DNA from: a virus
DNA: 22,774 nucleotides
Reading direction: 5' to 3' (one strand)
Virus record (IMG/VR): IMGVR_UViG_3300028888_004798
This document shows positions 1,186-19,932 of this stretch, piece by piece; position 1 is the first letter of the stretch, and each line of letters starts with the position of its first letter. The notes beneath the pieces were generated by a model. It had not been told where the DNA came from. It did not search any database and worked only from the letters and a program-made list of their open reading frames with translations. The position numbers and the translations under genes are program-made.

Positions 1186-4100
1186 TTATCTTACAATTAT
1201 TTTTTCAATAAAATCTTGCTCTTCAGGACTTAAATTATATTTTTCATATAACTGTTCACTCACTGAATTATTCCAATCAATATCTGAAGATTCAGTAAAA
1301 TCTTGCATAGGAACAAAACTATACACTCTTTTAGGAGCATCTTGAGTTGTTTTATTAGTGCCGACTAATAATTTGAAGAATTTAGTTTCCATATATTTTA
1401 AAGCATTTTGAGCTTCTATTTCACTTTCAAAAGAACCTATTTGTAAAAAGGTTTCAGTACATAATTCACCAGGTTTTCCTATCACAGGAGTAGGCCTATT
1501 ATCTTGTCCTAACTTTCCATTTCCATATGTACGATTAACGAACAATTTATATTTATATAATCCATCTTTTTTAGGAAGTGGATAATCTTGAGGAACATAT
1601 TTAAAAACTCTTATCCTGTTTTCAAGACCAAATATAGATAAATCAGTTGAATTATTTTTATTATTAAAAATTTCGGGCAAATCGTATTTTTTAGGATTTT
1701 TAAAGAAATCTCCTGTAAGTCCATAAGGTTTACGGCTAGAGACAATAGAGTCAAAAGATTCAAAATCATTATCCATTATTTTATGAAGTATGGAAATAAT
1801 TCTTTCATCCCTAATATAAATATCACCTAAGTCATGTAAATATCTAGTGGAATATTGTATTTCTCCATTATTATGGAATACAATTTCACAAGGCCTTTCT
1901 TCATTTTCACTTCTTAAGAAATAACATATTCCGCCTTTTATTTCAACAGTTGGGAAAATATCCTTAGAACTAACGTAATCAAATAATTTAATTATATGTT
2001 TATCTTTAAGCATATCTTCTCTAAAATCATCTAAGTTTTTACCACTAGTGTACCATCTAGCAGGTATAATTAATGATATGTAATTAGGTTGTAATTTTTT
2101 AGATACATCAACAAAATGCTGAAAAACATTTTTTGCACTAGCACTAGCGCCCCCATCCATCTCTTGATAAGGGGGATTTCCTACAATAGCATCAAATTTC
2201 ATTTTACCATCACCTTTAATCTGCCAGAAATTTGGATCTGAAATATTAGTTATTAGTTCATCATCATTATTTTTAAATTGATTTAACATGTCATCAAAAT
2301 AACAAGCATTAAATTTACCCTCTCTAAAACCTAATAAAGTTCTTCTTGCTATATCTTTAGCCATTGGAGTTTTACAAATAATAAAAATATTGTTTTCTAT
2401 AATGTCAAACCAGATATCCCATTGGCTATCTATTGATAACACCATAGAATAAGAATCAACTTTATTTTTATAAATATTATATGACGTGTATAATTGATAT
2501 AAACCTGTTTTAGAATTAATCTCTAAAATTTTACTGTTTTCATTAAATACATTAGATGTGAGAAATCCACGAGAAACAAAACGAGGTTCATCTAAAAGAC
2601 CATCTACAAAATCAAATGAATCATCATAGAAACACCATCCACCAAAACAATCACTTAAATGCATATTTACTACTCGCCATGGTGTTAAAACTGTTTCTTT
2701 ATCTGGATTTTTAAAATAAGAATGTATTTCTGTAATTCTTTGAATACGTTCCTCAATAGGCAAGTTATCAGCATCTTTTATCGTACGTCTGATTTTATTT
2801 CCTGCAGCTACAAATACTTCTTCATCATAATATTTGATAAATTTTTCAAATAGTTCTTTAGTCACACCAACAGGCATAAACTCTTCCCAAGATTCTTGAT
2901 CAACAATATCATCATTTAAGAAGTCTCTAAGTTTAAAATCATAATCAATAGGAATATCTGCTCCAAATATTAAAAGAGGCATCCTAATAGATATTTCTTT
3001 CAAAATTAATATTGCATCTTTTTTTTGTTTTTCTAATTCATCTTCTTTATCTACTAATGCTTCTTCTTCAGGAGTTCTTTCATCTTCTGGTTTTGTTTTA
3101 ATTTCCCCGACTTTTTCTATATCTTCCTCTGTTAATCCAGTTATATTAATATCAATATTTTTTATATCTGAATTGGTTTTAGAACTTACAATAGCTTTTT
3201 TAAGTTCATTAAAATCTAATAAATCAACATCTGTTAAAGTCAGAAGATTATTATTGTATAAATTACTATCATTAAAACCATTTATAACAGCTTTATCAGC
3301 ATAAGCTCTTTTAAGTTGCTGAAGCATTTTAGGTACATTATATGGTTTCATTCCAGTATTGTCTATTGAAATTACAGGGCAAAAGTTTAAAAATTTCTTA
3401 AGAGCTTTCCTTTGACTATCAGTTGATTCTCCTGCTTTCGTAGAAAGATGAACCGCTTCAGCAACAACTTTTAAAGTTCTGTCTGGAGCAAAATCAAATA
3501 CATAACAATCAGTTTTAATTTTTCCGAATTTATTGCAAGGGGATTGTGCTCTAAAAATAGTCTGAAGATAATTTGAAGCTGAAACTAAATTAGAACCTGA
3601 TAAATACATAACTGATGTCCATTCTCTAACTGTGACTCCAGTAGTTAATTTTCCACATGATAATGTAATTGTGTATCCATCTTCTCCAGCATCATCAATA
3701 GCATCCATAACTAGTTTTAAAGCTTCATCATTAGGATCTTCATCATCACCATCACCGGCAACATTTACAATATCAAAACCACTAAAAACCGGATGCCCCC
3801 TTAATAATTTACTAAGTGCTTTAGCCTCGGCAACTCCAGGAAGTAACCAAAATGAGTGTTTAAATAAATCCCTATATTTCTTACTTGCAAAAGGATAATT
3901 ATTATTTTCATCTTCCCGAGATATCAAATTTAAAAAACTGATTACATCATCTTCATAGACAAAATCACCAATTTGTTTATCAGGAGGTACCTCCATAGAA
4001 TCCTTTTCAATATTTCCTGTCCATGTTCTAAAAAATTCTTTAAAATTAAATGCTTTGTCAATTATGTCATTATACTGGACAGTATTTAACAATTCGCCTA

Positions 4101-5205
4101 AATCATATGTGAAGATGTGCATTTTAGGTAATTCTGCATAAGGATTAGAATCCCCCCAATGTTCTATATCCCACTTTCTTTTAGCTTCTTGTTCCATCAT
4201 ATAATCCCAAGTATAAATTTCATCATCTTCATACTCGTCTTTAATATTAAATGGAGTCCCAGATAATTCCAAACGTTTTGTATTATCTTTAATTAAAGCT
4301 TCATAAACACTTTGACCTAATTCAGTTCTTGTTCCTTCATGTGCTTCATCAATAATTACTAAATCCCAATCCAAATCGAAAATTTCATCATTTTTATCAA
4401 AAGTTCCACCAACAGTCGTAGAACCTCTTAAATCTTGGATAGAAGCAAAATAAACAAAATTCCTTCCAGAATCTATTAAGTCTTTTAATGAATTATAACC
4501 TGTTCCTTTAGAACCATATTCATAACCATCCCCATCAAAAAATATTTTATTAAAATCATCATACCAACTTTTATCAACAACCGGGCGATGAGTTATAATA
4601 ATACTTTTTTCAAATTTTTCACGTTTAATAACTTCTAAGGCAGCTAATGTTTTACCAAAACGCATTTTTGCATTCCATAACATGCGTGGATATTTCTCAA
4701 ATCTTTTAACAGTTTTTTCAATAGCCTCTATTTGTTCTGGCCTAAATATAATTGGATTATAATCCTCTGAAGTAGTAGTGCCTGAAAGATTATGTTTTCC
4801 ATCTTTTTTAGCTTTAATTGCTTCTATAGCTATATTAAGTCCCACTTCAAACCATTCTTTAGCATTACCTATTTCTTTTCTAGGATATCCTGAATTGATT
4901 AAAATGTTATGAACATCATGATCTCTAAAAGATTCTGATTTAGATTTATCATCAGATTCAGTAATAGCTAGTTCAGTATGTAAAAGAATATATTCAATAC
5001 CTGCTGTTTGAGTATAATGATTTATTCTGTTTTTAGCTGAGGCATTCAAATCGTCACAGTTAGGGGGTAACTGATTAGGAGTTTTACTAGTATTAATAGT
5101 TGTGTCTCCTATTTTTAACAGATTTTTATGTGCTTCATCATTTATAGTAAAAATATAAATGAGTTTGTACTTAAAAGTTTTTTCAAATTCGATTGAACTA
5201 GGCAT
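1186..5205 (-). CDS. Restriction-modification fusion: N-terminal putative GIY-YIG/T5orf172-like nuclease, SF2 helicase/ATPase, Eco57I-like N6-adenine methyltransferase and TRD
   Basis: Walker A-like NAKMRFGKT, IIDEAH, helicase-C motifs LSCGKLTTGVTV and YLQTIFRAQSP; ETVLTPWRVV; catalytic motif IV FDAIVGNPPYQE; C-terminal TRD-like region. Confidence 0.85.
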   Translation of the reverse strand: MPSSIEFEKTFKYKLIYIFTINDEAHKNLLKIGDTTINTSKTPNQLPPNCDDLNASAKNRINHYTQTAGIEYILLHTELAITESDDKSKSESFRDHDVHNILINSGYPRKEIGNAKEWFEVGLNIAIEAIKAKKDGKHNLSGTTTSEDYNPIIFRPEQIEAIEKTVKRFEKYPRMLWNAKMRFGKTLAALEVIKREKFEKSIIITHRPVVDKSWYDDFNKIFFDGDGYEYGSKGTGYNSLKDLIDSGRNFVYFASIQDLRGSTTVGGTFDKNDEIFDLDWDLVIIDEAHEGTRTELGQSVYEALIKDNTKRLELSGTPFNIKDEYEDDEIYTWDYMMEQEAKRKWDIEHWGDSNPYAELPKMHIFTYDLGELLNTVQYNDIIDKAFNFKEFFRTWTGNIEKDSMEVPPDKQIGDFVYEDDVISFLNLISREDENNNYPFASKKYRDLFKHSFWLLPGVAEAKALSKLLRGHPVFSGFDIVNVAGDGDDEDPNDEALKLVMDAIDDAGEDGYTITLSCGKLTTGVTVREWTSVMYLSGSNLVSASNYLQTIFRAQSPCNKFGKIKTDCYVFDFAPDRTLKVVAEAVHLSTKAGESTDSQRKALKKFLNFCPVISIDNTGMKPYNVPKMLQQLKRAYADKAVINGFNDSNLYNNNLLTLTDVDLLDFNELKKAIVSSKTNSDIKNIDINITGLTEEDIEKVGEIKTKPEDERTPEEEALVDKEDELEKQKKDAILILKEISIRMPLLIFGADIPIDYDFKLRDFLNDDIVDQESWEEFMPVGVTKELFEKFIKYYDEEVFVAAGNKIRRTIKDADNLPIEERIQRITEIHSYFKNPDKETVLTPWRVVNMHLSDCFGGWCFYDDSFDFVDGLLDEPRFVSRGFLTSNVFNENSKILEINSKTGLYQLYTSYNIYKNKVDSYSMVLSIDSQWDIWFDIIENNIFIICKTPMAKDIARRTLLGFREGKFNACYFDDMLNQFKNNDDELITNISDPNFWQIKGDGKMKFDAIVGNPPYQEMDGGASASAKNVFQHFVDVSKKLQPNYISLIIPARWYTSGKNLDDFREDMLKDKHIIKLFDYVSSKDIFPTVEIKGGICYFLRSENEERPCEIVFHNNGEIQYSTRYLHDLGDIYIRDERIISILHKIMDNDFESFDSIVSSRKPYGLTGDFFKNPKKYDLPEIFNNKNNSTDLSIFGLENRIRVFKYVPQDYPLPKKDGLYKYKLFVNRTYGNGKLGQDNRPTPVIGKPGELCTETFLQIGSFESEIEAQNALKYMETKFFKLLVGTNKTTQDAPKRVYSFVPMQDFTESSDIDWNNSVSEQLYEKYNLSPEEQDFIEKIIVR

Positions 5206-6178
5206 TATTTTTCCCTTCTTTGATTAAATCTATAAATTTAATTGTTTTTCCACTATCCCAATCTTTAATTTTACAATAAGTTCCATTATGTTTAGTTATT
5301 TGATTTTTCTTACATCCAATACATTCAATTTCTGTTTCTTCAGGACCCATTAATGTATTAATAATTTTTTTACCATTTTGACATGAAAATGGAACCACAT
5401 ATTTTAAAGCATCCATTTGAAAGATATTCCAAGAAATAATCTCCGCAATATCATATAAAAAATCATATTCTGGATTCTTATCAAATTTTTCAATGAAATA
5501 ATCAACAAAAGTAAATAAAATATTTTCTCTTGCTAAAAGAAGACTGTCTCCTTGAAATTCAAAAGCATAAATATTTTCAAAAGATTTTTTAGCCCAATAT
5601 AACCAATCATCTTGATTATTTGTATTTTCAGAAACAACTCTTAATTTTCTATCTAAAAGACCAATTCTGTTTTTTACTTTGATAAATTCTCCTGTGACCG
5701 CATCATACCTACTTACAAGATAAGGTGCTTCACCGCAAGTTATTTCTAATCTAGTGTCAAGTATATAATCTTGCCAGGTTTTTCCTTTAGGGAATTTTAT
5801 TTTATTAATATTTGGTTCCCATGTCTCCCCATTCTCTTGATTGAAAACGTTTTTACAATTGAACCATTTTTCATCAATTAGATTATTCTGTTTATTACAT
5901 ATCCAAGAAGGAGTAAAAACTTCTCCACTATCTCGGCTTCTTGTTGTTTGTTGATCATCTGTTTTTTTAATTCTAGGTTTAATAACATCTCCATTGTCCC
6001 CAGTGATTAATTCAGGACATATTCTTGAAGTTATTTCATAACCTTCACCATAATCTTCATAATCACTTGTTGCCCAAATGATATTTTTATTGGAGGAACG
6101 GTCTTTTAAAAGAATTTGCAATAATTCTGGATTGGATTTTTTTATAAAATTTTCTTTAATATCAATTCCCTGTTGCAT
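5198..6178 (-). CDS. Methyltransferase-like partner subunit of the RM locus (SAM-binding half, no NPPY motif seen)
   Basis: GEVFTPSWIC, LEITCGEAPYL (motif I-like), IYAFEFQGDSLLLARENI, WNIFQMDAL. Overlaps the start of the 1339-aa gene by 8 bp. ATG 6178 has a GGAGAATAGG RBS; alternative start 6193. Confidence 0.75.
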   Translation of the reverse strand: MQQGIDIKENFIKKSNPELLQILLKDRSSNKNIIWATSDYEDYGEGYEITSRICPELITGDNGDVIKPRIKKTDDQQTTRSRDSGEVFTPSWICNKQNNLIDEKWFNCKNVFNQENGETWEPNINKIKFPKGKTWQDYILDTRLEITCGEAPYLVSRYDAVTGEFIKVKNRIGLLDRKLRVVSENTNNQDDWLYWAKKSFENIYAFEFQGDSLLLARENILFTFVDYFIEKFDKNPEYDFLYDIAEIISWNIFQMDALKYVVPFSCQNGKKIINTLMGPEETEIECIGCKKNQITKHNGTYCKIKDWDSGKTIKFIDLIKEGKNNA

Positions 6179-6404
6179 TATCCTATTCTCCATTAATTTA
6201 TTAGGAAGTAAATAAGTATTTTAGATAGACATTACTAGGCTTTCACAGTCAATTTAATCATCTTAACAATAGTATAAACTTGTTACTATGTATATTATGA
6301 AAACAATATATATTTTTATATTACATACAACATTACATATCGTCATTTCTTTAAGCTAGTTAAATTGAAGAAAATATATAGTAGTGGTTATAAATAATAT
6401 AATA

Positions 6405-7205: not shown

Positions 7206-8144
7206 ATGATTACAAAAGGAAATAATACTAAAGTTCAAAACGAGGTAATAGCTCAAACTATTACTGATGAAACTGCAAAAAGGTTAAAGTTGGCCAGATT
7301 GTTTCCTAAGCAAGAAATTAAAGAGAACTCAGATTATTATACTTACTTTAGACAAAACATTAATCTTGATGAAGCTATTAAAAAAGGATTGCTCGGTGAG
7401 GCCAAAGACATTGCCCCAGGTGCAAGCCTTCAAGAATTAAACATAAGAAAACCAGTAACAGACACTATCAGCATAGATACTGTTGGTGGAGTCTTGAATG
7501 TCAATAAAGATGTGTTTGATTCAGACATTGTTTCATTTGAGGATTTATTAGGTGATGTAGCTACCGTTATTGCAAATCGTATTGAATACAACATTTACGA
7601 TACAATAATCAGCTCACCAAATGTTCCTGCATACAATACCACCCAAACGGATGACACTATGGATGCATTCGGTAAATTCGTTATCAGTGCACAGGAGGCA
7701 TTCAAAGGTAACGCTGGAGCAGGTGCAGACTTAACAATAATGGCAGAGTCTTACAAAACATTATCATACGTTAAACAATTAGCGTACAGTTCTAACAAGT
7801 TAGTTCAACCGGTAGAAGCTATTAAAGAATACTACGGTATTGACAACATTGATCTTTTAGGAACAACCCAAGCTGACGGCGGATCATTAATAGGTGAAAA
7901 ACAATATATCGGTTTTGATCTCCGTAATGCACCGTTAACAGTATTGTATTCTAAATCTTCAGGAACTACTGTTGCGCCTATTACATCCGATGAAAACATT
8001 GCAGACTTCTATCCACTCATTGAAATCATGAGAAAAGATATTTACGATGAATTACCTCAATACACCAAATTATTTATACAAAGTAAAGTAGGAATATTAT
8101 TAAATAAACCAGGTCTTGCTTTGAAAGGTACTTGCAGACCATAG
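7206..8144 (+). CDS. HK97-fold major capsid protein, paralog 1
   Basis: 312 aa. E-loop/spine-helix pattern IAPGASLQELNIRKPVTDTISIDTVGGVLNVNKDVFDSDIVSFEDLLGDVATVIANRIEYNI. GGTGA RBS; follows the decoration-like gene. Confidence 0.75.
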   Translation: MITKGNNTKVQNEVIAQTITDETAKRLKLARLFPKQEIKENSDYYTYFRQNINLDEAIKKGLLGEAKDIAPGASLQELNIRKPVTDTISIDTVGGVLNVNKDVFDSDIVSFEDLLGDVATVIANRIEYNIYDTIISSPNVPAYNTTQTDDTMDAFGKFVISAQEAFKGNAGAGADLTIMAESYKTLSYVKQLAYSSNKLVQPVEAIKEYYGIDNIDLLGTTQADGGSLIGEKQYIGFDLRNAPLTVLYSKSSGTTVAPITSDENIADFYPLIEIMRKDIYDELPQYTKLFIQSKVGILLNKPGLALKGTCRP

Positions 8145-8157
8145 GAGGCGATAGTTA

Positions 8158-9084
8158 ATGTTAACCAAAGGAAATGATGCAAAAGTACAAAATGAAGTCA
8201 TGGCACAGATAGTGGCCGATACTTCAGCCAAATGGATGAAATTCACCAGATTACTTCCAAAGCAAGAGATAGAAGAAAACTCACAATACTATACCTATAT
8301 GTCTCAAAGAGTCAACATCGAGGAAGCTATTCAAAGCGGCGTACTCGGTGAGGCCAAAGACATTGCTCCTGGCGCAACCCTTCAGGAATTAAACGTTAGA
8401 AAACCAATCAGCGAAACCGTATCCATTGACACTATCGGTGGAGTCTTAAACGTTTCAGCTCAAATGCTGGATTCCAATTTAATCAGCGTTAATGACATGT
8501 TACAGGATGTAGGTATCCTCATCGGTAGAAGTATTGAAAAGGCAGCTATTGATATGATAATGAATTCATCCAAAGTAGCTACCTACAACTTCGAATCTGG
8601 CGATGACACTGGTATGACCATCCTTAAAGCACAGGAAAAATTCAAAGAAGGTGCCGGAAGCTATGCCAACTTAAACAGTATGGCTGTTAGTTACAAATCT
8701 CTCACTACATTAAAATCTGACATATTCTCAAGTAACAGACAAGTTGAACCGGTAGAATTAATCAAAAGCTATTACGGCGTTGATAATATTGATATCCTTG
8801 GAACTGCTGTTTGCGATGGTGGTTCTGAGATGGGTGACAAAACATATATTGGTATGGACTACATTAACCCAGGAATGAAATTGTTATACTCCAGGACTAC
8901 AGGAACAACCGTTGCACCTTTAGGACCTGACGGTGAAATGTACGATTTCTATCCATTAATCGAATTCATGCGCAAAGACATACGTGACGAATTGCCTATG
9001 TATACAAAACTATTCATACTTTCCTCCGTCGGTGTGTTAATGAACGCACCTAATAGAATAATCAAAGGACAATTCAGAGCATAG
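8158..9084 (+). CDS. HK97-fold major capsid protein, paralog 2
   Basis: 308 aa, colinear paralog of 7206..8144 (about 67 of the first 100 residues identical by manual alignment; shared DFYPLIE.MRKDI.DELP.YTKLFI). GGAGG RBS. Confidence 0.75.
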   Translation: MLTKGNDAKVQNEVMAQIVADTSAKWMKFTRLLPKQEIEENSQYYTYMSQRVNIEEAIQSGVLGEAKDIAPGATLQELNVRKPISETVSIDTIGGVLNVSAQMLDSNLISVNDMLQDVGILIGRSIEKAAIDMIMNSSKVATYNFESGDDTGMTILKAQEKFKEGAGSYANLNSMAVSYKSLTTLKSDIFSSNRQVEPVELIKSYYGVDNIDILGTAVCDGGSEMGDKTYIGMDYINPGMKLLYSRTTGTTVAPLGPDGEMYDFYPLIEFMRKDIRDELPMYTKLFILSSVGVLMNAPNRIIKGQFRA

Positions 9085-9332: not shown

Positions 9333-9731
9333 ATGAAATTATTTTTAGATAATAAAAATTCGTATGCAACAACAATAACAGTCAAAGGTAAGGAAATCAA
9401 ATTGCTATTAATAGAATCAAGCATATTAATAGACAGTTCACAAATAGCAACACTATTCGACAGAAAAGAAAGAACAGTTGCAGCCAAAGTCCAGAAATCC
9501 AAACTGGAGAAATACGAAACCACCAACGTTAAGCTATTGAAAAGCTACGGCCTAATGAATCCTAATGCAGTTAAACCAAAACCATTCTACGATTTAAGAC
9601 AAATCATGGAAGGCCCCGGCAGGTACTATTTCAAACAAGCTGACGAACTTGATCTCATAGACGTTATTGTTAATGTGGCCATTGGAAAACATCGTGAGTG
9701 GATCCATAACAGGGACATTGACAAATTTTAA
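9333..9731 (+). CDS. Hypothetical protein, possibly Bro-N/ORF6N-like DNA-binding
   Basis: 132-aa ORF; ITVKGKEIKLL...ILIDSSQIATLFDRKERTV resembles antirepressor-type N-terminal domains. Stop codon abuts repeat copy A. Confidence 0.55.
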   Translation: MKLFLDNKNSYATTITVKGKEIKLLLIESSILIDSSQIATLFDRKERTVAAKVQKSKLEKYETTNVKLLKSYGLMNPNAVKPKPFYDLRQIMEGPGRYYFKQADELDLIDVIVNVAIGKHREWIHNRDIDKF

Positions 9732-9843
9732 TCCACATTAACATCGGCCATTAGCTATTGAAAACTTATTTTTTGAAACCCTTTCATATATATCACGGTT
9801 TAAATTCAGAATTGAATTGTGAAAACCCTTCCGTTAACGTTAA
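9732..9843 (+). repeat. 112-bp dispersed repeat, copy A
   Basis: TCCACATTAAC...GCTATTGAAAACTTATTTTTTGAAACCCTTTCATATATATCAC...CCGTTAACGTTAA; same register as copies B-D. Confidence 0.85.
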
Positions 9844-10011
9844 TGTTGAATCAATAAATTAATAGCTATTGATTGCACCTATAGATTATCTCATCCGGAA
9901 CTTCAAATATTCATTCTAGTAAGAAATATATTTTTCCAGTAATGAAATATCAAACGTTAATGTTAATGTCATAATCATCCAACCATTACTTACTATTTCT
10001 CTATATACCTA

Positions 10012-10058
10012 TTGCGACTCGTTTCACTCGTCGCAACCTGTCCAACTTCGTTGGACAG
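10012..10058. other. Twin GC-rich hairpins, both with TTC loops
   Basis: TTGCGAC-TC-GT-TTC-AC-TC-GTCGCAA immediately followed by CTGTCCAAC-TTC-GTTGGACAG (perfect 9-bp stem). Confidence 0.7.
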
Positions 10059-10177
10059 CTTATTTTTTAAATATCAAAATGTTTATATACATCGAATTAC
10101 AGAGTAAGTATATACATTAATAATGTAATTACATTTATTAAGTAACTACATTAATTAATATCAAGGAGGAATTTAAC

Positions 10178-10735
10178 ATGACTGACGACCAGGACAATTA
10201 TGAAGCGTTAATTGAAAAACATGCTCAACGCCAAATGAACCTTAAAGAAGCAAAAGAAGATTACATTCAAGAAGAACAGACACCACGAAAACAGATAACA
10301 GTTAAAATATTCCCGAATACTCACAAAGCTTTAAAATTAATAGCAACTGCCAAAGACACCAGTTTAGAAAAGATTGCAACATCCATTATCGAAGCTAAAA
10401 CAAAAGACTTAGATATTGTTGAATATGTAAGAGAAGCAGTTGAAAACACTGAAGCATTTGAAGATGGCTTTGATTGGTTACATAGAGAAGACATTGACAA
10501 TTCAGCTTATGATTTAAACGATAAGTTATTGAATAAAGGCAATCCACGAAAAAGAATCAATGTTAAAGTTGATTTAGAAACTCACAGAAAATTAAGGATA
10601 GTCTCAGCTATTCAAGACAGATCACTTGATAAGATTGTCTGCTCCATCATTGAATATGAAGTTGGAGAGAAAACTCATATTGACACATCCAAATTAATGG
10701 ATGAAATACTAGAATCAATTAAAGATAAAGAATAG
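10178..10735 (+). CDS. Protein with two tandem ribbon-helix-helix (CopG/Arc-like) domains
   Basis: Internal duplication PRKQITVKIFPNTHKALKLIATAKDTSLEKIATSIIE / PRKRINVKVDLETHRKLRIVSAIQDRSLDKIVCSIIE. GGAGG RBS. Confidence 0.75.
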   Translation: MTDDQDNYEALIEKHAQRQMNLKEAKEDYIQEEQTPRKQITVKIFPNTHKALKLIATAKDTSLEKIATSIIEAKTKDLDIVEYVREAVENTEAFEDGFDWLHREDIDNSAYDLNDKLLNKGNPRKRINVKVDLETHRKLRIVSAIQDRSLDKIVCSIIEYEVGEKTHIDTSKLMDEILESIKDKE

Positions 10736-10766
10736 CTAACGTTAATGTTAGTGTTGGACTTGGAGA

Positions 10767-11927
10767 TTAAATTAAAGTAACCTTATCCTTCGGAACATAT
10801 TCTATTGTTTCGGTAGGTTCTTTTTCCACCTCTATCTCTTCAAGTTCAACAGGTTCTTTATCTTTAACAATAGTATTATGCCTACCACTTATTAAAGTGT
10901 TTACACGGGTTAATGACTTTGTATCTCCAAGTAAGTGATTATAATCTTTAGCTAATTCATTGTATTTCAATTTATTAGCATTTACTTCCTGAGTATAAGC
11001 TATTAGCATTTGTGCTTTTTCTTCAGTATGCTTAACTTCCATTTCAGATTTTTGTTTGGAAAGTTTCATATCAACTTCAGCACTTAATTTATCTAATTCA
11101 AGTTTAGCATCTTTAACTTTATCTTTCAGGTTATCAATTTCTTCATAATGTTCTTTTGGAGGAATATAATCTTTTAACATTGATAGAGATTCAACTTTTT
11201 CAGTTAATTCATCTATATGTGTTTGTTGCTTTTGGATGGTTTCTTTTAACTCTTTTTCTTTATTAAGAAAACTGGACTGGAGTTCGTCCTTAGTTTCCTT
11301 ATAGTTATCGTTAATGCCAATAATATTTTGATTCAGTAACTTATTGGTTTCATTAATGTGAATATTTGCGGTCTTCAGCTGTTCGTTGTCTTTGATCAAT
11401 TCTTCATTTCTGTTTGCAAGATCATCTGAAGATTCCATAAGATTTTCAAATGCATTCTTCCAATATTCAACTTCGCTCTCCTTGGTTTTCAATTCTTCTT
11501 TTAAAGTTTCAATATCATCTACGGATTCAACTTTAACATCCTTGGAGGATTCAAGTTCTTTAGCTAGTGAATCAACTCTTGTTACAAGTTCTTTAATTGT
11601 ATTGTCCTTTTCTGAATTCTCATTGGTTAATTCAGTAATGGTTTTATCCTTTTCCTGAAGCTGTGCTTTTAAATCTTCAGCGTCAGTGTCAGTTGTTCCT
11701 TTAGCTATTATGCCTTCAAGTTCTTTTATTCTGGCTTTGTATTCATCTACATTGTCTAATTCTTTCATTACATCAAAGCGTTGCTCTTCTGATAAAACAT
11801 AGACTTTTTCGCCAACATCAAAAATAGTATTGCTGAATCCTATCCTGTTTGCATTTGCAGTATTTTTCTTTACTTCAAATTCCAGGCCGATTCCTTTATC
11901 ACTTTTTTCAAGAGTTTTTTCATCCAT
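10767..11927 (-). CDS. Long coiled-coil protein with a small N-terminal beta domain (possibly AbrB/SpoVT-like)
   Basis: 386 aa with about 280 residues of E/K/L heptad-rich sequence; N-terminal LEFEVKKNTANANRIGFSNTIFDVGEKVYVLS. GGAGTG RBS. Confidence 0.65.
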   Translation of the reverse strand: MDEKTLEKSDKGIGLEFEVKKNTANANRIGFSNTIFDVGEKVYVLSEEQRFDVMKELDNVDEYKARIKELEGIIAKGTTDTDAEDLKAQLQEKDKTITELTNENSEKDNTIKELVTRVDSLAKELESSKDVKVESVDDIETLKEELKTKESEVEYWKNAFENLMESSDDLANRNEELIKDNEQLKTANIHINETNKLLNQNIIGINDNYKETKDELQSSFLNKEKELKETIQKQQTHIDELTEKVESLSMLKDYIPPKEHYEEIDNLKDKVKDAKLELDKLSAEVDMKLSKQKSEMEVKHTEEKAQMLIAYTQEVNANKLKYNELAKDYNHLLGDTKSLTRVNTLISGRHNTIVKDKEPVELEEIEVEKEPTETIEYVPKDKVTLI

Positions 11928-11986
11928 CCATTTTCACTCCAAATCCTTAACATACATATCTTTATAACAACTATATTTTATAGCTA

Positions 11987-12686
11987 TTGCAATTAATTGC
12001 AATTTTATTGCAACAAAAATTGCAACAGTTGCAACTGGAATTGCAACTCGATTTTGAAAATTGCAACTTTTGAACAATGTTGAATACTGTTTAATTTGGC
12101 CCCTATTCGGAAAAATAGAAACGACAATTGCAGTTTTTGGGGGTAGGTTGTTTGCTTGCAGGAAGGTGCAAGTATTGTAATACATATATCGTAATATATA
12201 CATTTCCTTGGTATGCCAGAAAACCCACCCCAGACGGGTGTTTTTGGACATCCATCTGTCCCAGTAGCTGTTCGGCACTTTCGTAATATACTACAATAAT
12301 TTATATACATTCGTGTAAACATTCACAATTGCAACTGTTGCAACTTTTAAATACTGAATTGCAACTTGCATTAAAATGGGGTCAAAAACGGATATGCGGG
12401 GTTTTTCGATTTTTGGAATTGCAATTAATTGCAATAAAATTGCAATTCTTAGGGGGAAAATTGCAACTAAATTGCAATTTCTCATTGACGTTAAATTTAA
12501 CATTCTTAAAATTACACTTGTTCAGTTATCAATAACTTTTTTAATAAAATATTGAACAAACTAATAATTAAAAATTGCAATTAATTGCAACTCTGATTCT
12601 GGTTTTCAGGGTGAAAATTTCAGGAGTTGCAACTGAGTTGCAATAAAGTTGCAACAAAATTGCAATAGTTGCAACTGGAATTGCAA
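11987..12686. repeat. Array of 23 TTGCAA palindromes in five clusters around a GC-richer core
   Basis: Counted at 11987, 11997, 12008, 12020, 12029, 12041, 12061; 12329, 12338, 12359; 12419, 12429, 12440, 12461, 12472; 12575, 12585; 12627, 12638, 12649, 12660, 12669, 12681. Confidence 0.95.
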
Positions 12687-12816
12687 CACCAAAAACTGTC
12701 ATGACATATAGACTAACTAATACAAAAACTAACAATTGAAGTAATAAAATATTGTATTACAAAAATTAGTTACGCTATATAAAATTAATAATACTATGAT
12801 ATATAAATAATATAAT

Positions 12817-13626
12817 ATGTCAAGTAATAGTATAAGCTGGACTCAATTCTGCCAGGGCATGAACTCAATATGTTACTGGCTCATCCAGAACAAAAAGAAA
12901 TATAAGAAACGTGACTACTACCAAATACTAAAACTGAAAGGTAGTTGTGCAGATGTTGAAAAGAAAGCAAAGAAACTAGGAAACAATAAGCTAGTGGCAA
13001 TGTATACAATGGCGGTGATTAAAGACAATAAGTCATTGGATTTCCTTCCAAACTACGTGACATTAAAAAACGGCCTTCAGATAGATAAAGCTGAATACAT
13101 TGACATGGCCATAAGGACTGAAGCATACATTACAGCCAACAAAAGACTTCCAGCTATTGTATATAGGATGTCCAAACTTCCTGACTATAAAGACACCACA
13201 ATGAATTTCTTTATCAAAACCTTCAACTATAAAGGCAATACCATAGATGAGGCTTTAGCTATTATATCCAAAAAGGAATTATATAGCAAGTACTTTGATT
13301 CACAAAAAACAGACAAACAAACCATTAATGATGCAAGTAAAGGTAAAGGCTCCAACTGTGTGGACTGGGGACAAGTATATTACCGTATCGCCAAATCATT
13401 AGGCTATGAGGTTCAATTCGTACATGTTAAATGTCGTGTAAGTGGTACTGGCCATATCAGATTAAGGCTCAGGCACAAGAAACATACTGAAGGAAACTGG
13501 ATCAACCGTGACCCTGCAGCAGTTGCAGATACAACATCCGGAAATGTTAGATCCCTCTGGTGTGAAGACGGATATGTTATAGCTATTGATCCAAGTTGGA
13601 TATTTACAGATTTATATTCCATTTAA
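12817..13626 (+). CDS. peiW: Pseudomurein endoisopeptidase (PeiW/PeiP-like endolysin, peptidase C71)
   Basis: Pseudomurein-binding repeat LPNYVTLKNG..IDKAEYIDMAIRTEAYITANKRLPAIV; catalytic triad motifs SNCVDW (Cys), GTGHIRL (His), NRDPAA (Asp). Confidence 0.85.
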   Translation: MSSNSISWTQFCQGMNSICYWLIQNKKKYKKRDYYQILKLKGSCADVEKKAKKLGNNKLVAMYTMAVIKDNKSLDFLPNYVTLKNGLQIDKAEYIDMAIRTEAYITANKRLPAIVYRMSKLPDYKDTTMNFFIKTFNYKGNTIDEALAIISKKELYSKYFDSQKTDKQTINDASKGKGSNCVDWGQVYYRIAKSLGYEVQFVHVKCRVSGTGHIRLRLRHKKHTEGNWINRDPAAVADTTSGNVRSLWCEDGYVIAIDPSWIFTDLYSI

Positions 13627-13635
13627 GGTGATAAC

Positions 13636-13863
13636 ATGAATTGTGGCGAAGCAATTGAAGTTTTAAAAAAATTTCCAAAAGATAAACCATTAATGATAAT
13701 GGGATGGTATAGTATTGCAGAAACAGATGAACCTGAAGGCATTAACAGTATATGTTATCTCAAAGAAGTAGACATAGACACTTTAGAAGTCACAGGTGAA
13801 ATAAAAGACTTTGTAGCTATTGTTAGTGACAAGTATCACGAAATAGCAAGCGAATTTCCATAA
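13636..13863 (+). CDS. Small acidic hypothetical protein
   Basis: 75-aa ORF with AAGGTGA RBS, 9 bp after the pei stop; ends 8 bp before repeat copy B. Confidence 0.7.
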   Translation: MNCGEAIEVLKKFPKDKPLMIMGWYSIAETDEPEGINSICYLKEVDIDTLEVTGEIKDFVAIVSDKYHEIASEFP

Positions 13864-13871
13864 TTAACCAA

Positions 13872-13981
13872 TTGACATTAACGGCTGGGGTTGGCTATTC
13901 AAAACTCACTTTCTGAAACCCTTTCATATATATCACAGGGGAAACAAGATTGATTTGAGAAATCGTGGCCGTTAATGTTAA
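13872..13981 (+). repeat. 110-bp dispersed repeat, copy B
   Basis: TTGACATTAAC...GCTATTCAAAACTCACTTTCTGAAACCCTTTCATATATATCAC...CCGTTAATGTTAA. Confidence 0.9.
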
Positions 13982-14110
13982 TGTCCATTTAAGTAAATTA
14001 AAAGAAAAAAAGTAACTATTATAATTTTAACATTAATAATTCAATAGAGCAAATGCAGAATCACTTAATAAAATAAAAAAAAGAAGTTGTTAAAAATTTA
14101 ACAACAAAGT

Positions 14111-14431
14111 TTATACTACTTTAGATTGGATAAATTTACCTACAAATGCTCCAAATAATCCTAATATAATATTTAAAATGAATATTGAGAAATTTCCATA
14201 TAGTAATCCAATAAATAAACTAGCAATTATTCCAATTAAAGCACCATAAATAATAGCATATACAGTTGTGTTTTTACATAAAAATCCAGCAACTGCTGTA
14301 GCTAATACCAATCCTAAATAACTTACAATACTGCCTCCGCCAAGCATACAAATTATAACAAAAATTATTGATATAACTGCACCAACAGCGATAGGAAATA
14401 TTTCTATATTACCTGCAATATCTTCATCCAT
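14111..14431 (-). CDS. Small integral membrane protein (3-4 TM helices)
   Basis: 106 aa, almost entirely hydrophobic and Gly-rich; GAGGTGA RBS. Confidence 0.8.
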   Translation of the reverse strand: MDEDIAGNIEIFPIAVGAVISIIFVIICMLGGGSIVSYLGLVLATAVAGFLCKNTTVYAIIYGALIGIIASLFIGLLYGNFSIFILNIILGLFGAFVGKFIQSKVV

Positions 14432-14559
14432 TTTTTCACCTCATTTAATAAGCTAAAATTTTTTTATAATATTTCCTTCCATTATTAACTTAAAAAAATC
14501 TAAACTATATTTAAAAATATATATTTAATATATTATTATAATTTGTGTATACAAAGAGG

Positions 14560-14671
14560 TTAACATTAACATCCTGCATTAGCTATTCAAAACTAACTTT
14601 CTGAACCCCTTGCATATATATTGAGGTCGCAAATCAAAATCTATTTTCCAAAACACGACCGTTAATGTTAA
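14560..14671 (+). repeat. 112-bp dispersed repeat, copy C
   Basis: Perfect 11-bp terminal inverted repeat TTAACATTAAC (14560-14570) / GTTAATGTTAA (14661-14671); core GCTATTCAAAACTAACTTTCTGAACCCCTTGCATATATAT. Confidence 0.9.
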
Positions 14672-14681
14672 AGTAGGCTAA

Positions 14682-15380
14682 TTAAATTTCAAAAGTAAGT
14701 GGCATGTGGTCACTTATTTTCAACCATTTATCAGCATTTCCAATTAGTAAATCTTTAACTTTATCAGGTGCAGAAAATATGTGGTCCAAGTGAAATGGGC
14801 TATTAATATTTCTACGCCAGTAAAATGTAGGTATTGATTCCTTTCCTTCTTGCTCTCCAGTCAAATAATGATATATATCTACAAGCCCTTTCTCAGATAA
14901 CTTATCTATCATTTCATAAACATTCATACCATGCTGTTTATTAACTAATCTTACATCACAATTAAAATCTCCACAGATAATCATCTCTTCATTGAAAAAT
15001 CCTGAATCCCTGTGTTCTTCATAATATCGAGTAATTTCTTTAGGATAATAAATTTCTTTACGTCCTTCAATGTTAGGATTAGTCCAAACACCTAAAAGAT
15101 TAAAATCATCATTAACACGAACAGGTATGAAATATCTAAGCCCTTTATCATCTAAATCCACTAATTCTATTTTAACATTATCTTTAGCAAATATTCCAAG
15201 ACCATACTTTTGATTATCCCCAACCCAAAAATAATTAGAAGCAAATTCAGTATAATCCTCTGAATCCATTACTACTGGATTCTCACATTCTTGAATAACG
15301 TAAATATCCGCTCTTTCTTCAAGAATTGCAGGAAATCTTTCACTAAAGTAGCCATTAGAATTCCATGAAACTATTTTCAT
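14682..15380 (-). CDS. Endonuclease/exonuclease/phosphatase (ExoIII/DNase I-like) family protein
   Basis: Motifs MKIVSWNSNG, IYVIQE, IICGDFN, HLDHIF and SDHMPL in canonical order. Confidence 0.9.
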   Translation of the reverse strand: MKIVSWNSNGYFSERFPAILEERADIYVIQECENPVVMDSEDYTEFASNYFWVGDNQKYGLGIFAKDNVKIELVDLDDKGLRYFIPVRVNDDFNLLGVWTNPNIEGRKEIYYPKEITRYYEEHRDSGFFNEEMIICGDFNCDVRLVNKQHGMNVYEMIDKLSEKGLVDIYHYLTGEQEGKESIPTFYWRRNINSPFHLDHIFSAPDKVKDLLIGNADKWLKISDHMPLTFEI

Positions 15381-15436
15381 CTTATTTCCCCAATTAATTG
15401 ATATTTATACATATGTTACTATCATTATATAATTAG

Positions 15437-15548
15437 TTAACATTAACACCCGCCATCACCAATTCAAAACTTACTTTCTGAAACCCTTTCATATATATAC
15501 AAGTCCACAATCAGATTTCAAATCCAAAAACCCTGCCGTTAATGTTAA
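15437..15548 (+). repeat. 112-bp dispersed repeat, copy D
   Basis: Perfect terminal inverted repeat TTAACATTAAC (15437-15447) / GTTAATGTTAA (15538-15548); core ATTCAAAACTTACTTTCTGAAACCCTTTCATATATAT. Confidence 0.9.
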
Positions 15549-15743
15549 TGTGCAGCTGTTAAAGTGAAAGTCAAAAATAGATACTGTTTATTTTAACAGT
15601 AACATTGCAGATTATGAAACTTACTCCAACTATTGAAAATCAGTTTTTATTACGATATTGTTTATATTTTATTATCTTATTATTGTCATTTATTAACAAT
15701 TTTTAAAATGAAGTATAGCGCTAGCTATCGAAAAAAATTTTTG

Positions 15744-16025
15744 CTATTTATATTGAAGTTCATAATATATTAGCAATCCAAGACGAGTTAGTTTATATAA
15801 CTTGCCGGTCTTTTCATTTTCATTAAGGCACACAACAATATCTTTGTCTTTTAATTCTCGTAGCACTCTTGATACAAGAGAGAATCTTACGTTCATTGTT
15901 TCTGTAATTTCCGATGGAGTCATTCTTGATTTTTCGATTATTTTGATAACCTTCTGACGGTTCTTGCTACGTTTGACATAGGCGAATGCGTCAATGTATG
16001 TCGGGCTATTAGTATCGGGTAACAT
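15744..16025 (-). CDS. Winged helix-turn-helix regulator, homologous to 890..1156
   Basis: YVKRSKNRQKVIKII...TPSEI...SLVSRVLRELKDKDIVVCLNENEKTGKLYKLTRLG aligns with YVQISKYREKVMKSL...PSQI...HISKVLSELKAHELIECINPEVRKGRLYRHTDKG. Confidence 0.85.
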   Translation of the reverse strand: MLPDTNSPTYIDAFAYVKRSKNRQKVIKIIEKSRMTPSEITETMNVRFSLVSRVLRELKDKDIVVCLNENEKTGKLYKLTRLGLLIYYELQYK

Positions 16026-19233: not shown

Positions 19234-19250
19234 TAATAGCTATTTTGCTA

Positions 19251-19932
19251 TGGACATATTGATGGACATACTATGGACTATACTGTGGACTTTATGGACT
19301 GTCTTATGGACATATTATGGACTGCATCGTGGACTGTTTGTGGACTTGAAGTGGGACACCATGGACACCCAATGGGATTATCATATGGATTATCTGAGGG
19401 ACTAATTATGGACAAGGTAATGGACATATCGTGGACTATGTTATGGACTAACTATGGACTATACTATGGACTGGTTATGGACTACTTGATGGACATACTA
19501 TGGACTATGTTGTGGACTAACTATGGACTAACTAATGGACAAAGTGTGGACTATATCGTGGACTGTTTATGGACTAAGTTGTGGATGGACTGGATGATGG
19601 ACTGTTTATGGACTGATGGATGTATGGATGGACTAATGGACATACACGAATCAGGTATACCCCCCATGTATCAGAAATCTAAGGTCGATATGAACTTCTT
19701 TTTGTAGGGTGTCCATAACTATGGACTGATTATGGACTATACTATGGACTGATTATGGACTGGAGTATGGACTGATTTTTCATAAAATTGTTGTCTGCGA
19801 ACCTAGTCGAGCCGACATAACATTGTTATCTTTCCAAAATCAACGCAATTTTCAGGGGGTACACATTTTTTGGGGCAGTCCACGTGGATGGATGTATGGA
19901 CTACAGTCCACGTTATGGACTTCCGCGTGGAC
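19251..19932 (+). repeat. Phased array of TGGAC pentamers (38 forward, 3 reverse) starting 18 bp after the terL stop
   Basis: From 19409 to 19570 the starts alternate exactly 12 and 11 bp for 14 intervals; the 6-7 nt spacers vary in sequence. Confidence 0.95.

Follow-up and report, generated by a model that had tools for sequence, protein, structure and literature searches.

Results

The window analysed here, the whole 22,774 nt stretch of IMG/VR record IMGVR_UViG_3300028888_004798, is a piece of a head-tail virus or provirus of rumen Methanobrevibacter; its products include a terminase large subunit, two capsid paralogues and a PeiW-type pseudomurein endoisopeptidase, and restriction-modification genes are present as well. 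Four copies of a repeated element (A to D) lie between its genes, and this element, which bounds accessory-gene cassettes of varying number and content in fixed viral slots as well as in chromosomal arrays, is the subject of the present study. In the nearest genome, G001, contig C4 carries a sister virus of 96% identity. A RefSeq virus, vir323 (circular, 34,179 bp), which is collinear with the window at 72–84% identity, contains four element copies, none of which is annotated there.

An earlier note on this DNA had described four copies in one orientation, and all of them were recovered (Table 1) with pairwise identities of 71–77%, the end motif occurring eight times against 0.16 expected from shuffles. 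The distance from the left core to a GAAACC or GAACCC box is indeed the same in all four (40 bp start to start, 46 bp inclusive), and the gene order as well as the plus-strand stops 0 and 8 bp before A and B had been read correctly. The 11-bp terminal inverted repeat is perfect in C and D only and reaches 10/11 in B and 8/11 in A, the invariant part being an 8-bp core. Likewise, the layout of one gene per repeat holds in the window, but relatives have 0–4 genes between copies. The interior was rightly called not self-complementary, since the fold z-scores of −0.3 to −3.0 stem from the terminal stem, and no terminator-like hairpin was found in the four window copies. A second hexamer adds 6 bp to the right end of copies A–D, and beyond it a rightward tail of ~50–105 bp follows, which often holds a third core.

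Alleles of the slot between ORF75 and the winged-helix (wHTH) gene, where B, C and D lie, differ in the number of cassettes. An empty allele has one element and no cargo (L088), others have one cassette between two elements (L079, with the nuclease only, L072, L086 and L087), and three elements were found in the window, L068 and L382. Usually n cassettes go along with n + 1 elements, most complete alleles having two or three elements with one or two cassettes, and gene content between copies differs even from that of the 96%-identical sister virus. The L072 cassette comprises a methylase, a MutH-type endonuclease and two small genes, and the other cargoes of this slot include adhesins (C4, L083), a MarR-flavodoxin-esterase unit, a metal repressor with a P-type ATPase, and SpoIIM with a CAAX protease. 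Cargo 2 of the window follows the element of ORF75 without cargo 1 in L079 and stands after the SpoIIM-CAAX cassette in L084. Element B is itself composite: its first ~22 bp match the long-spacer ORF75 allele family, and the rest matches the L068/L080 membrane-gene cassette (99.5% over 556 bp).

Further slots lie after ORF132 and between a wHTH gene and the provirus integrase, the cargo of the latter including GmrSD/HEC-05-like and UzuA-like genes; type II restriction-modification genes also belong to the cargo as a whole. One four-gene cassette was found both in the ORF75 slot (L382) and in the integrase slot (L114), which argues that mobility follows the element and not the locus. Empty cassettes of ~190–200 bp exist as well, including tandem arrays ahead of tail genes. 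At L022:9480-10200 and its equivalents (L082, L085/L289, L117, L283) such tandem ~200-bp empty modules occupy a fixed place before the tail genes, in one to at least four copies among the viruses. On chromosomes, arrays with one or two genes between copies differ between species, and solo ~230-bp insertions without cargo stand between genes that are adjacent in most relatives. The earlier note's proposal of a gene-capture or shuffling site came through the comparative tests (varying content, an empty allele and no target-site duplication), and by comparison the role of the element in gene exchange is well supported.

The methylase and MutH-type endonuclease pair of L072 lies between elements, whereas in L287 (87–92% identity) it sits in the restriction-modification slot, in which no element was detected; the two loci are a possible snapshot of cassette birth. 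Element cores were also found inside the coding end of ORF132, which may reflect either pseudo-site insertion or a 19-bp slippage deletion and was not counted as evidence.

The anatomy of the family was drawn from 66–144 collected copies. Two inverted ACATTAAC cores delimit an element of ~106 bp overall with a central AT run, followed by a tail of ~100 bp. The order is left core, seven variable GC-rich bases, interior, central AT run and inverted right core, the latter often doubled by the second hexamer. Measured from the centre outwards, one arm has 51 bp in most copies, and the other 55 bp in a viral type (106 bp) versus ~51 bp in a more symmetric chromosomal type (101–102 bp). In the chromosomal type the AT run at the centre is symmetric and flanked by G/C; the viral type has a purine-rich box ahead of a TATA-like central run, and its interior contains an A4-N6-T-rich inverted repeat that is not evident in the chromosomal-type consensus. 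The interior follows a GC register of ~6.2 bp, with A-tracts placed symmetrically at ~14, 27 and 34 bp from the centre. Nucleosome-type 10-bp phasing was not supported, the GC and WW period being ~6.2 bp and the A-tract peaks a mixture of 6, 10 and 13.5 bp. Conservation ends sharply on the outer side of the left core, and this core often touches or overlaps a stop codon; to the right, conservation runs on as the tail, where 18 of 66 copies have a third core near +50. At the same chromosomal slot interiors have diverged to 63–78% while the geometry is tightly kept.

Beyond the core the ends do not covary (mean perfect repeat 9.07 versus 9.09 with shuffled partners), and a copy-specific perfect terminal repeat in each element was not borne out; the flanks of the centre likewise revealed no consistent covariation. 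Target-site duplications, which the earlier note had named as the mark of a miniature inverted-repeat transposable element (MITE), were not found: no excess was seen for 3–8 bp at any offset, and for 2 bp the excess over the 81 offset pairs tried was weak at best. Rfam gave no match for the element. From this anatomy we infer that the site is read by protein as double-stranded DNA with a fixed geometry, which sets it apart from hairpins, RNA genes and typical transposon ends. In L124 and L021 both cores share a complementary change at position 3, a weak hint of end coupling (p about 0.01–0.02).

A group II intron (L025:4123-6358; RF00029, with a 499-aa reverse transcriptase) lies directly after the central AT run of one element, and its removal restores the full element. 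This is a single case, and related introns use other targets, so the elements were rejected as a group II intron target. Several related introns (L112, L200, L203, L204, L227) share a conserved intergenic target starting GAGAGCATTTGA, which may be a repeat family itself, and two further group II introns sit in PeiW genes (L209, L214).

For the distribution analysis two cores 80–100 bp apart served as search pattern, single matches to which may be chance. Matches were obtained in 64 of the 93 genomes of the Methanobrevibacter genus of G001 (0–38 per genome), while in 208 other genomes sampled from the order the pattern stayed at about control level. G001 contains ~36 distinct copies with a central AT run, on viral and on ordinary chromosomal contigs. 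Two incomplete genomes, G280 and G195, had ~20 matches each and no detected capsid gene of this virus family, and in the complete genome G027 no element was found. The earlier description as an archaeal-virus site thus holds insofar as viruses carry copies, but the family is chromosomal too. Except for one short contig binned as Bacilli, all repeat-bearing records were Methanobrevibacter. Pattern matches in IMG/VR were mostly chance, within coding DNA, and a plasmid collection gave no match to the element. A literature search, outside which most subscription papers fell, found no description of it. The element family is widespread and apparently undescribed.

In order to locate the exchange points, alleles were compared along their elements, and weight was given only to pairs of at least ~96% identity, because many of the breakpoints that seem to follow a stop codon directly may reflect divergence only. 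The right half of the element travels with the right flank (identity 0.88 versus 0.55 background). Change-point analysis placed breakpoints at the left core, at 16–38, at 41–61, at the right core and in the tail. In the 96–100%-identical pairs they lay 2–11 bp from a core: L070 and L170 part 2 bp past the left core, L068 and L065 join 8–11 bp past it, L376 and L377 part 6 bp past the tail core, and window D and C4 switch at 89–94, the inner edge of the right 7-bp spacer. For L070 and L109, element and flanks are identical apart from a patch 3–8 bp past the core. These core-proximal breakpoints would fit an exchange at the core plus a 7-bp overlap, the usual geometry of tyrosine recombinase sites. 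Other breakpoints lie at the centre or are compatible with it (57–60 for the SpoIIM-CAAX cassette, 34–60 for window B) and fit homologous recombination or branch migration through the 20–26-bp exact matches found there. Unrelated copies share a median exact match of 13 bp, with at least 20 bp in 11% of pairs, and such matches are short for RadA. The closest pairs are few and partly related, and with breakpoints at both cores and at the centre one fixed crossover point is not established. A 7-bp spacer that follows neither flank had also been considered; this was weakened once two ORF75 allele families were separated.

Two tyrosine recombinases came into consideration. The provirus integrase intA (~377 aa; L069:1102-2235) has an element 102–109 bp from its 3' end in two subfamilies, and with element linkage confined to these it was not accepted as the enzyme. 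The 359-aa Xer-like recombinase intB is 78–95% conserved and single-copy in 67 of the 93 genomes of the genus; beyond the genus it was found in only three of four genomes of one sister genus. Its range by genus matches that of the element, but it also occurs where no element was found. In two complete genomes, where no XerA passed the cut-off, intB comes out best among the Xer-like genes and is located at half coordinate length. Its predicted fold resembles XerA, Cre and XerH, the integron integrase IntI (2a3v) ranking 46th behind those three. Either enzyme could act in trans, and both are candidates, neither being established. A serine resolvase (PF00239) was absent from five element-bearing genomes, which, with no convincing inverted allele, speaks against a resolvase res site or an invertase switch. 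The integron integrase model TIGR02249 gave no hit over cut-off in five element-bearing genomes and matched neither intA nor intB.

At L024:3512-4591 (G001:C13 8514-9590), which is intB, a unique and nearly invariant 24-bp inverted repeat lies ~95–120 bp upstream of the gene, and the pair is a candidate archaeal gene-plus-site module of the XerS/difSL kind; XerS and XerH modules likewise pair the gene with an adjacent site (PMC5357621). The region upstream of this candidate dif matched model positions 27–61 weakly (4–9 bits). A third recombinase family (G124, G172) had no element nearby and was dismissed. In G124 a cluster of four diverged XerA-like tyrosine recombinase genes was found (L388/L389; G124:C72 37.7–43.1 kb).

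The positions of the elements and of the neighbouring genes are compiled in Table 1. Beside these, the window contains a dense TTGCAA array (11980–12690) next to coiled-coil and tandem RHH genes, which is kept in the integrase-free ~35-kb viruses and is possibly a partition or replication locus, and a TATGGAC array of 23-bp period after the terminase gene (19250–19790). The two full-length capsid paralogues (7206–9084) are ~57% identical, and their family occurs in 40 of 103 genomes of the genus. A restriction-modification slot at 1186–6193 (type IIG-like enzyme and methyltransferase) differs in content among the sister viruses, and no element was detected in it.

Table 1 Elements, cargo and flanking genes of the window, ordered by position.
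Feature	Position	Strand	Remarks
ORF132	9333..9731	+	conserved viral gene flanking slot A on the left; putative DNA-binding protein, ORF6N-like (lead only)
Element A, left core to second right hexamer	9735..9846	+	core to core 9735-9840 (106 bp); slot after ORF132; G001:C4 has an extra 57-aa gene immediately left
Tail of A	9847..9969	+	ends in a stand-alone right-type tandem hexamer, 9956-9969
Stand-alone tandem hexamer, right-type half-site	10735..10754	+	between convergent RHH and coiled-coil genes; like half-sites after PeiW stops in relatives
PeiW-type pseudomurein endoisopeptidase	12817..13626	+	belongs to the fixed anchor left of the B-D slot
ORF75	13636..13863	+	fixed left anchor of the B-D slot
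Element B	13875..13984	+	core to core 13875-13978 (104 bp); chimera
Tail of B	13985..14040	+	third, degenerate core at 14030-14037
Cargo 1, 106-aa membrane protein	14111..14431	-	DUF5518 match weak, under Pfam cut-off; identical protein in L068 beside three other genes
Element C	14563..14674	+	core to core 14563-14668 (106 bp)
Cargo 2, 232-aa endonuclease/exonuclease/phosphatase-family protein	14682..15380	-	
Element D	15440..15551	+	core to core 15440-15545 (106 bp); closes the array; its right part goes together with the wHTH flank
Tail of D	15552..15655	+	degenerate third core near 15596-15603
Small winged-helix gene	15744..16025	-	anchors the B-D slot on the right in the virus group of the window; not itself a cassette

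Discussion

We see about an even chance that the elements constitute a cassette system of a tyrosine recombinase acting in trans, blurred by homologous recombination. Each element would then be a composite site-specific recombination site, at which the recombinase would bind the cores and the seven GC-rich bases just inside each core would serve as overlap region, while the fixed arm length and the central AT run may allow bending or wrapping of the DNA to form a defined complex. When two direct copies recombine, this would release an excised circle of one element plus cargo, which might re-enter at another element or at a core-like pseudo-site, and branch migration or RadA recombination through the conserved left half could yield the central breakpoints. 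Our guess for the enzyme is the genus-specific host intB or the provirus intA, which the integrase-free ~35-kb viruses, including that of the window as far as it reaches, would borrow. In favour of this model we count the one-element empty allele and the n + 1 arrays, the four-gene cassette present in two slots, breakpoints close to the cores in nearly identical pairs, the shortness of exact matches between unrelated copies, the geometry kept while interiors diverge, the element near the 3' end of intA and the near-restriction of intB to the genus. An archaeal analogue of integrons of independent origin, in which a host tyrosine recombinase moves cassettes among dozens of chromosomal sites and recombinase-free viruses by means of half-sites ~90 bp apart on bent or histone-wrapped double-stranded DNA, is proposed only tentatively, at well below even chances.

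Several observations weigh against such a recombinase system. As the earlier note had seen, no recombinase is visible in the window, and no tyrosine recombinase was found there or in four sister viruses (C4, G219:C25, G124:C21 and vir323). For the 24 closest chromosomal relatives of intA no element was detected in the available 0–1.5 kb downstream. intB also occurs in a complete genome without the element, its link to the presence of at least two pattern matches is weak and non-independent (37 of 67 genomes with intB versus 7 of 26 without), and its own unique adjacent inverted repeat is unlike the core. A single crossover point is lacking, breakpoints being found also at 16–38, at the centre (41–61) and elsewhere in the tail. 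Furthermore, L065 is without the leading element, some alleles retain only its first 8, 22 or 56 bp, and the conservation of the cores is partly built into the search patterns used. Finally, we know of no tyrosine recombinase site with single arms 90 bp apart.

A lesser, yet real, possibility is that the elements are PeSL-like, i.e. kept for a regulatory or structural job at operon ends (a protein-coated boundary, a terminator or a promoter module), with cassettes shuffled by homologous recombination only. Single crossovers between direct repeats would yield the same n + 1 arrays, breakpoints cluster in the most conserved blocks, and window B, D and A share 20–26-bp exact matches around the centre. 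A role at operon ends is in line with cores that often abut stop codons, with divergent contexts being rarer than convergent ones (8 versus 19 of 72), with stand-alone tandem hexamers ahead of T-runs at PeiW ends and with the cargo-free solo copies between conserved chromosomal genes; T4-type PeSLs, moreover, shuffle genes and form mini-circles via recombination between copies (PMC2839356). Against this stand the absence of a stem-loop, the chromosomal-type centre, which is a symmetric AT run and not a BRE-TATA promoter, and several breakpoints that fall within 8–11 bp of shared sequence by a core despite longer matches further in. A promoter would also be involved if the 90-bp interior flipped between the inverted cores as a phase-variation switch, or if the element were a plain promoter. 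The inverted cores flanking a TATA-like run, with the purine-rich box ahead of it in the viral type, invite this reading. No convincing inverted allele was seen among 77 viral-type copies, however, of six chromosomal slot pairs compared, five gave the better score in the same orientation (the sixth is maybe not orthologous), and the putative promoter of the window faces away from the starts of the cargo genes, which makes this reading very unlikely.

A selfish MITE-like repeat, moved by a transposase and carrying cargo in translocatable units or via recombination between copies, would account for the inverted ends, for copy numbers from 0 to ~36 per genome and for the solo ~230-bp insertions. 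We consider it improbable, given that no target-site duplication of 2–8 bp appeared at any boundary offset, that the best-conserved bases lie inside the ends and not at the tips, and that the same slots are occupied in different species with geometry kept and interiors diverged; in addition, no transposase gene bounded by cores was seen in the loci examined, a genome-wide transposase search not having been made. Arrays of gene then site, stop codons at or in the core and the AAC...GTT ends that the earlier note had likened to attC would suit a true integron read on the minus strand, and integrons are known in other archaea (10.1101/2022.02.06.479319). The AAC and GTT themselves fit, but the attC consensus fails, with RYYYAAC in 1% and GTTRRRY in 0% of 101 copies, and so does the pairing, none being found beyond the core. 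With no TIGR02249 over cut-off in five genomes and IntI far down the list for the intB model, this reading is largely refuted already and hardly to be believed. Just as little credence is given to a replication, partition or packaging site repeated by chance: its AT-rich centre between inverted protein-binding boxes and the tandem array at a fixed place in these viruses would be expected, but the copies vary freely in number and place, none was found in complete genomes such as G027, and the cassette boundaries are left unexplained.

Rumen Methanobrevibacter are major livestock methane producers, and to our knowledge the route by which they gain adhesins and anti-virus defence genes is largely unexplained. 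The elements mark such a route between chromosome and virus, as well as the places at which genes for defence, adhesins and transporters are acquired, lost and exchanged. Should a dedicated recombinase indeed act on this site, which keeps its geometry and forms no hairpin, the cassette system would be independent of integrons and might be of use for integration into methanogens; should the integron analogue hold, rumen methanogens would share a shufflable library of defence, adhesin and transporter genes. Even under homologous recombination alone, the element would be a marker for accessory and defence genes in the genus. Judged from sequence comparison, it is a real cassette-boundary element, with enzyme and chemistry at candidate level.

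Relation to known systems

Archaeal integrons and clusters of attC sites lacking integron integrases (CALINs) are known (10.1101/2022.02.06.479319). With integrons the present arrays share same-orientation sites between accessory genes, the n + 1 layout, the AAC...GTT ends, stop codons at the site edge and defence cargo, and in one copy a group II intron interrupts the element, as may happen to attC sites. In contrast, the elements show neither fold-back structure nor attC consensus, and no IntI was found; their interior and length are conserved, whereas in attC it is the pairing. Element cassettes hold 0–4 genes in either orientation, and several breakpoint classes take the place of a single crossover point. 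PeSLs, the regulatory cassettes of T4-type phages (PMC2839356, PMC4122927), are alike in being repeated intergenic modules in variable virus regions, where recombination adds, removes or swaps genes with no dedicated recombinase in the virus. They differ in consisting of a sigma70 promoter and a stem-loop terminator, while the elements have no stem-loop, carry inverted 8-bp cores at a fixed distance and occur also at many host chromosomal sites.

As in Xer/dif and pdif modules, repeated sites enclose genes and a host recombinase probably acts on them, and the host ~360-aa Xer-like gene with its adjacent unique inverted repeat is reminiscent of the single-recombinase systems XerS/difSL and XerH/difH (PMC5357621, PMC2958812). 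The A4-N6-T-rich inverted repeat of the viral-type interior is loosely similar to difSL. However, dif sites measure 28–31 bp with arms 6–11 bp apart, whereas the element cores are ~90 bp apart, and a dif-like close pair of cores was discarded as it occurs only at control level. The pdif sites alternate in orientation. Sites of the lambda attP type and Tn916/Tn1549 circle junctions resemble the element in a ~200-bp site with AT-rich centre, distant tandem arm-like boxes and a variable 6–7-bp overlap by the binding box; here, unlike there, the full site is present on both partners and exists in many copies, and there is no linked integrase-excisionase pair. MITEs and IS26-type translocatable units have in common with it short inverted ends, solo insertions, patchy copy number and units of one element plus cargo in direct arrays, and are set apart by the missing target-site duplication, by conserved bases that are not terminal and by the fact that no transposase was seen with these ends. 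A report on circular DNA of M. smithii (PMC12134362) describes no flanking repeats and was set aside as unrelated. The element falls outside attC, dif/pdif, PeSL and MITE when compared feature by feature, yet it acts like an integron array or a PeSL region.

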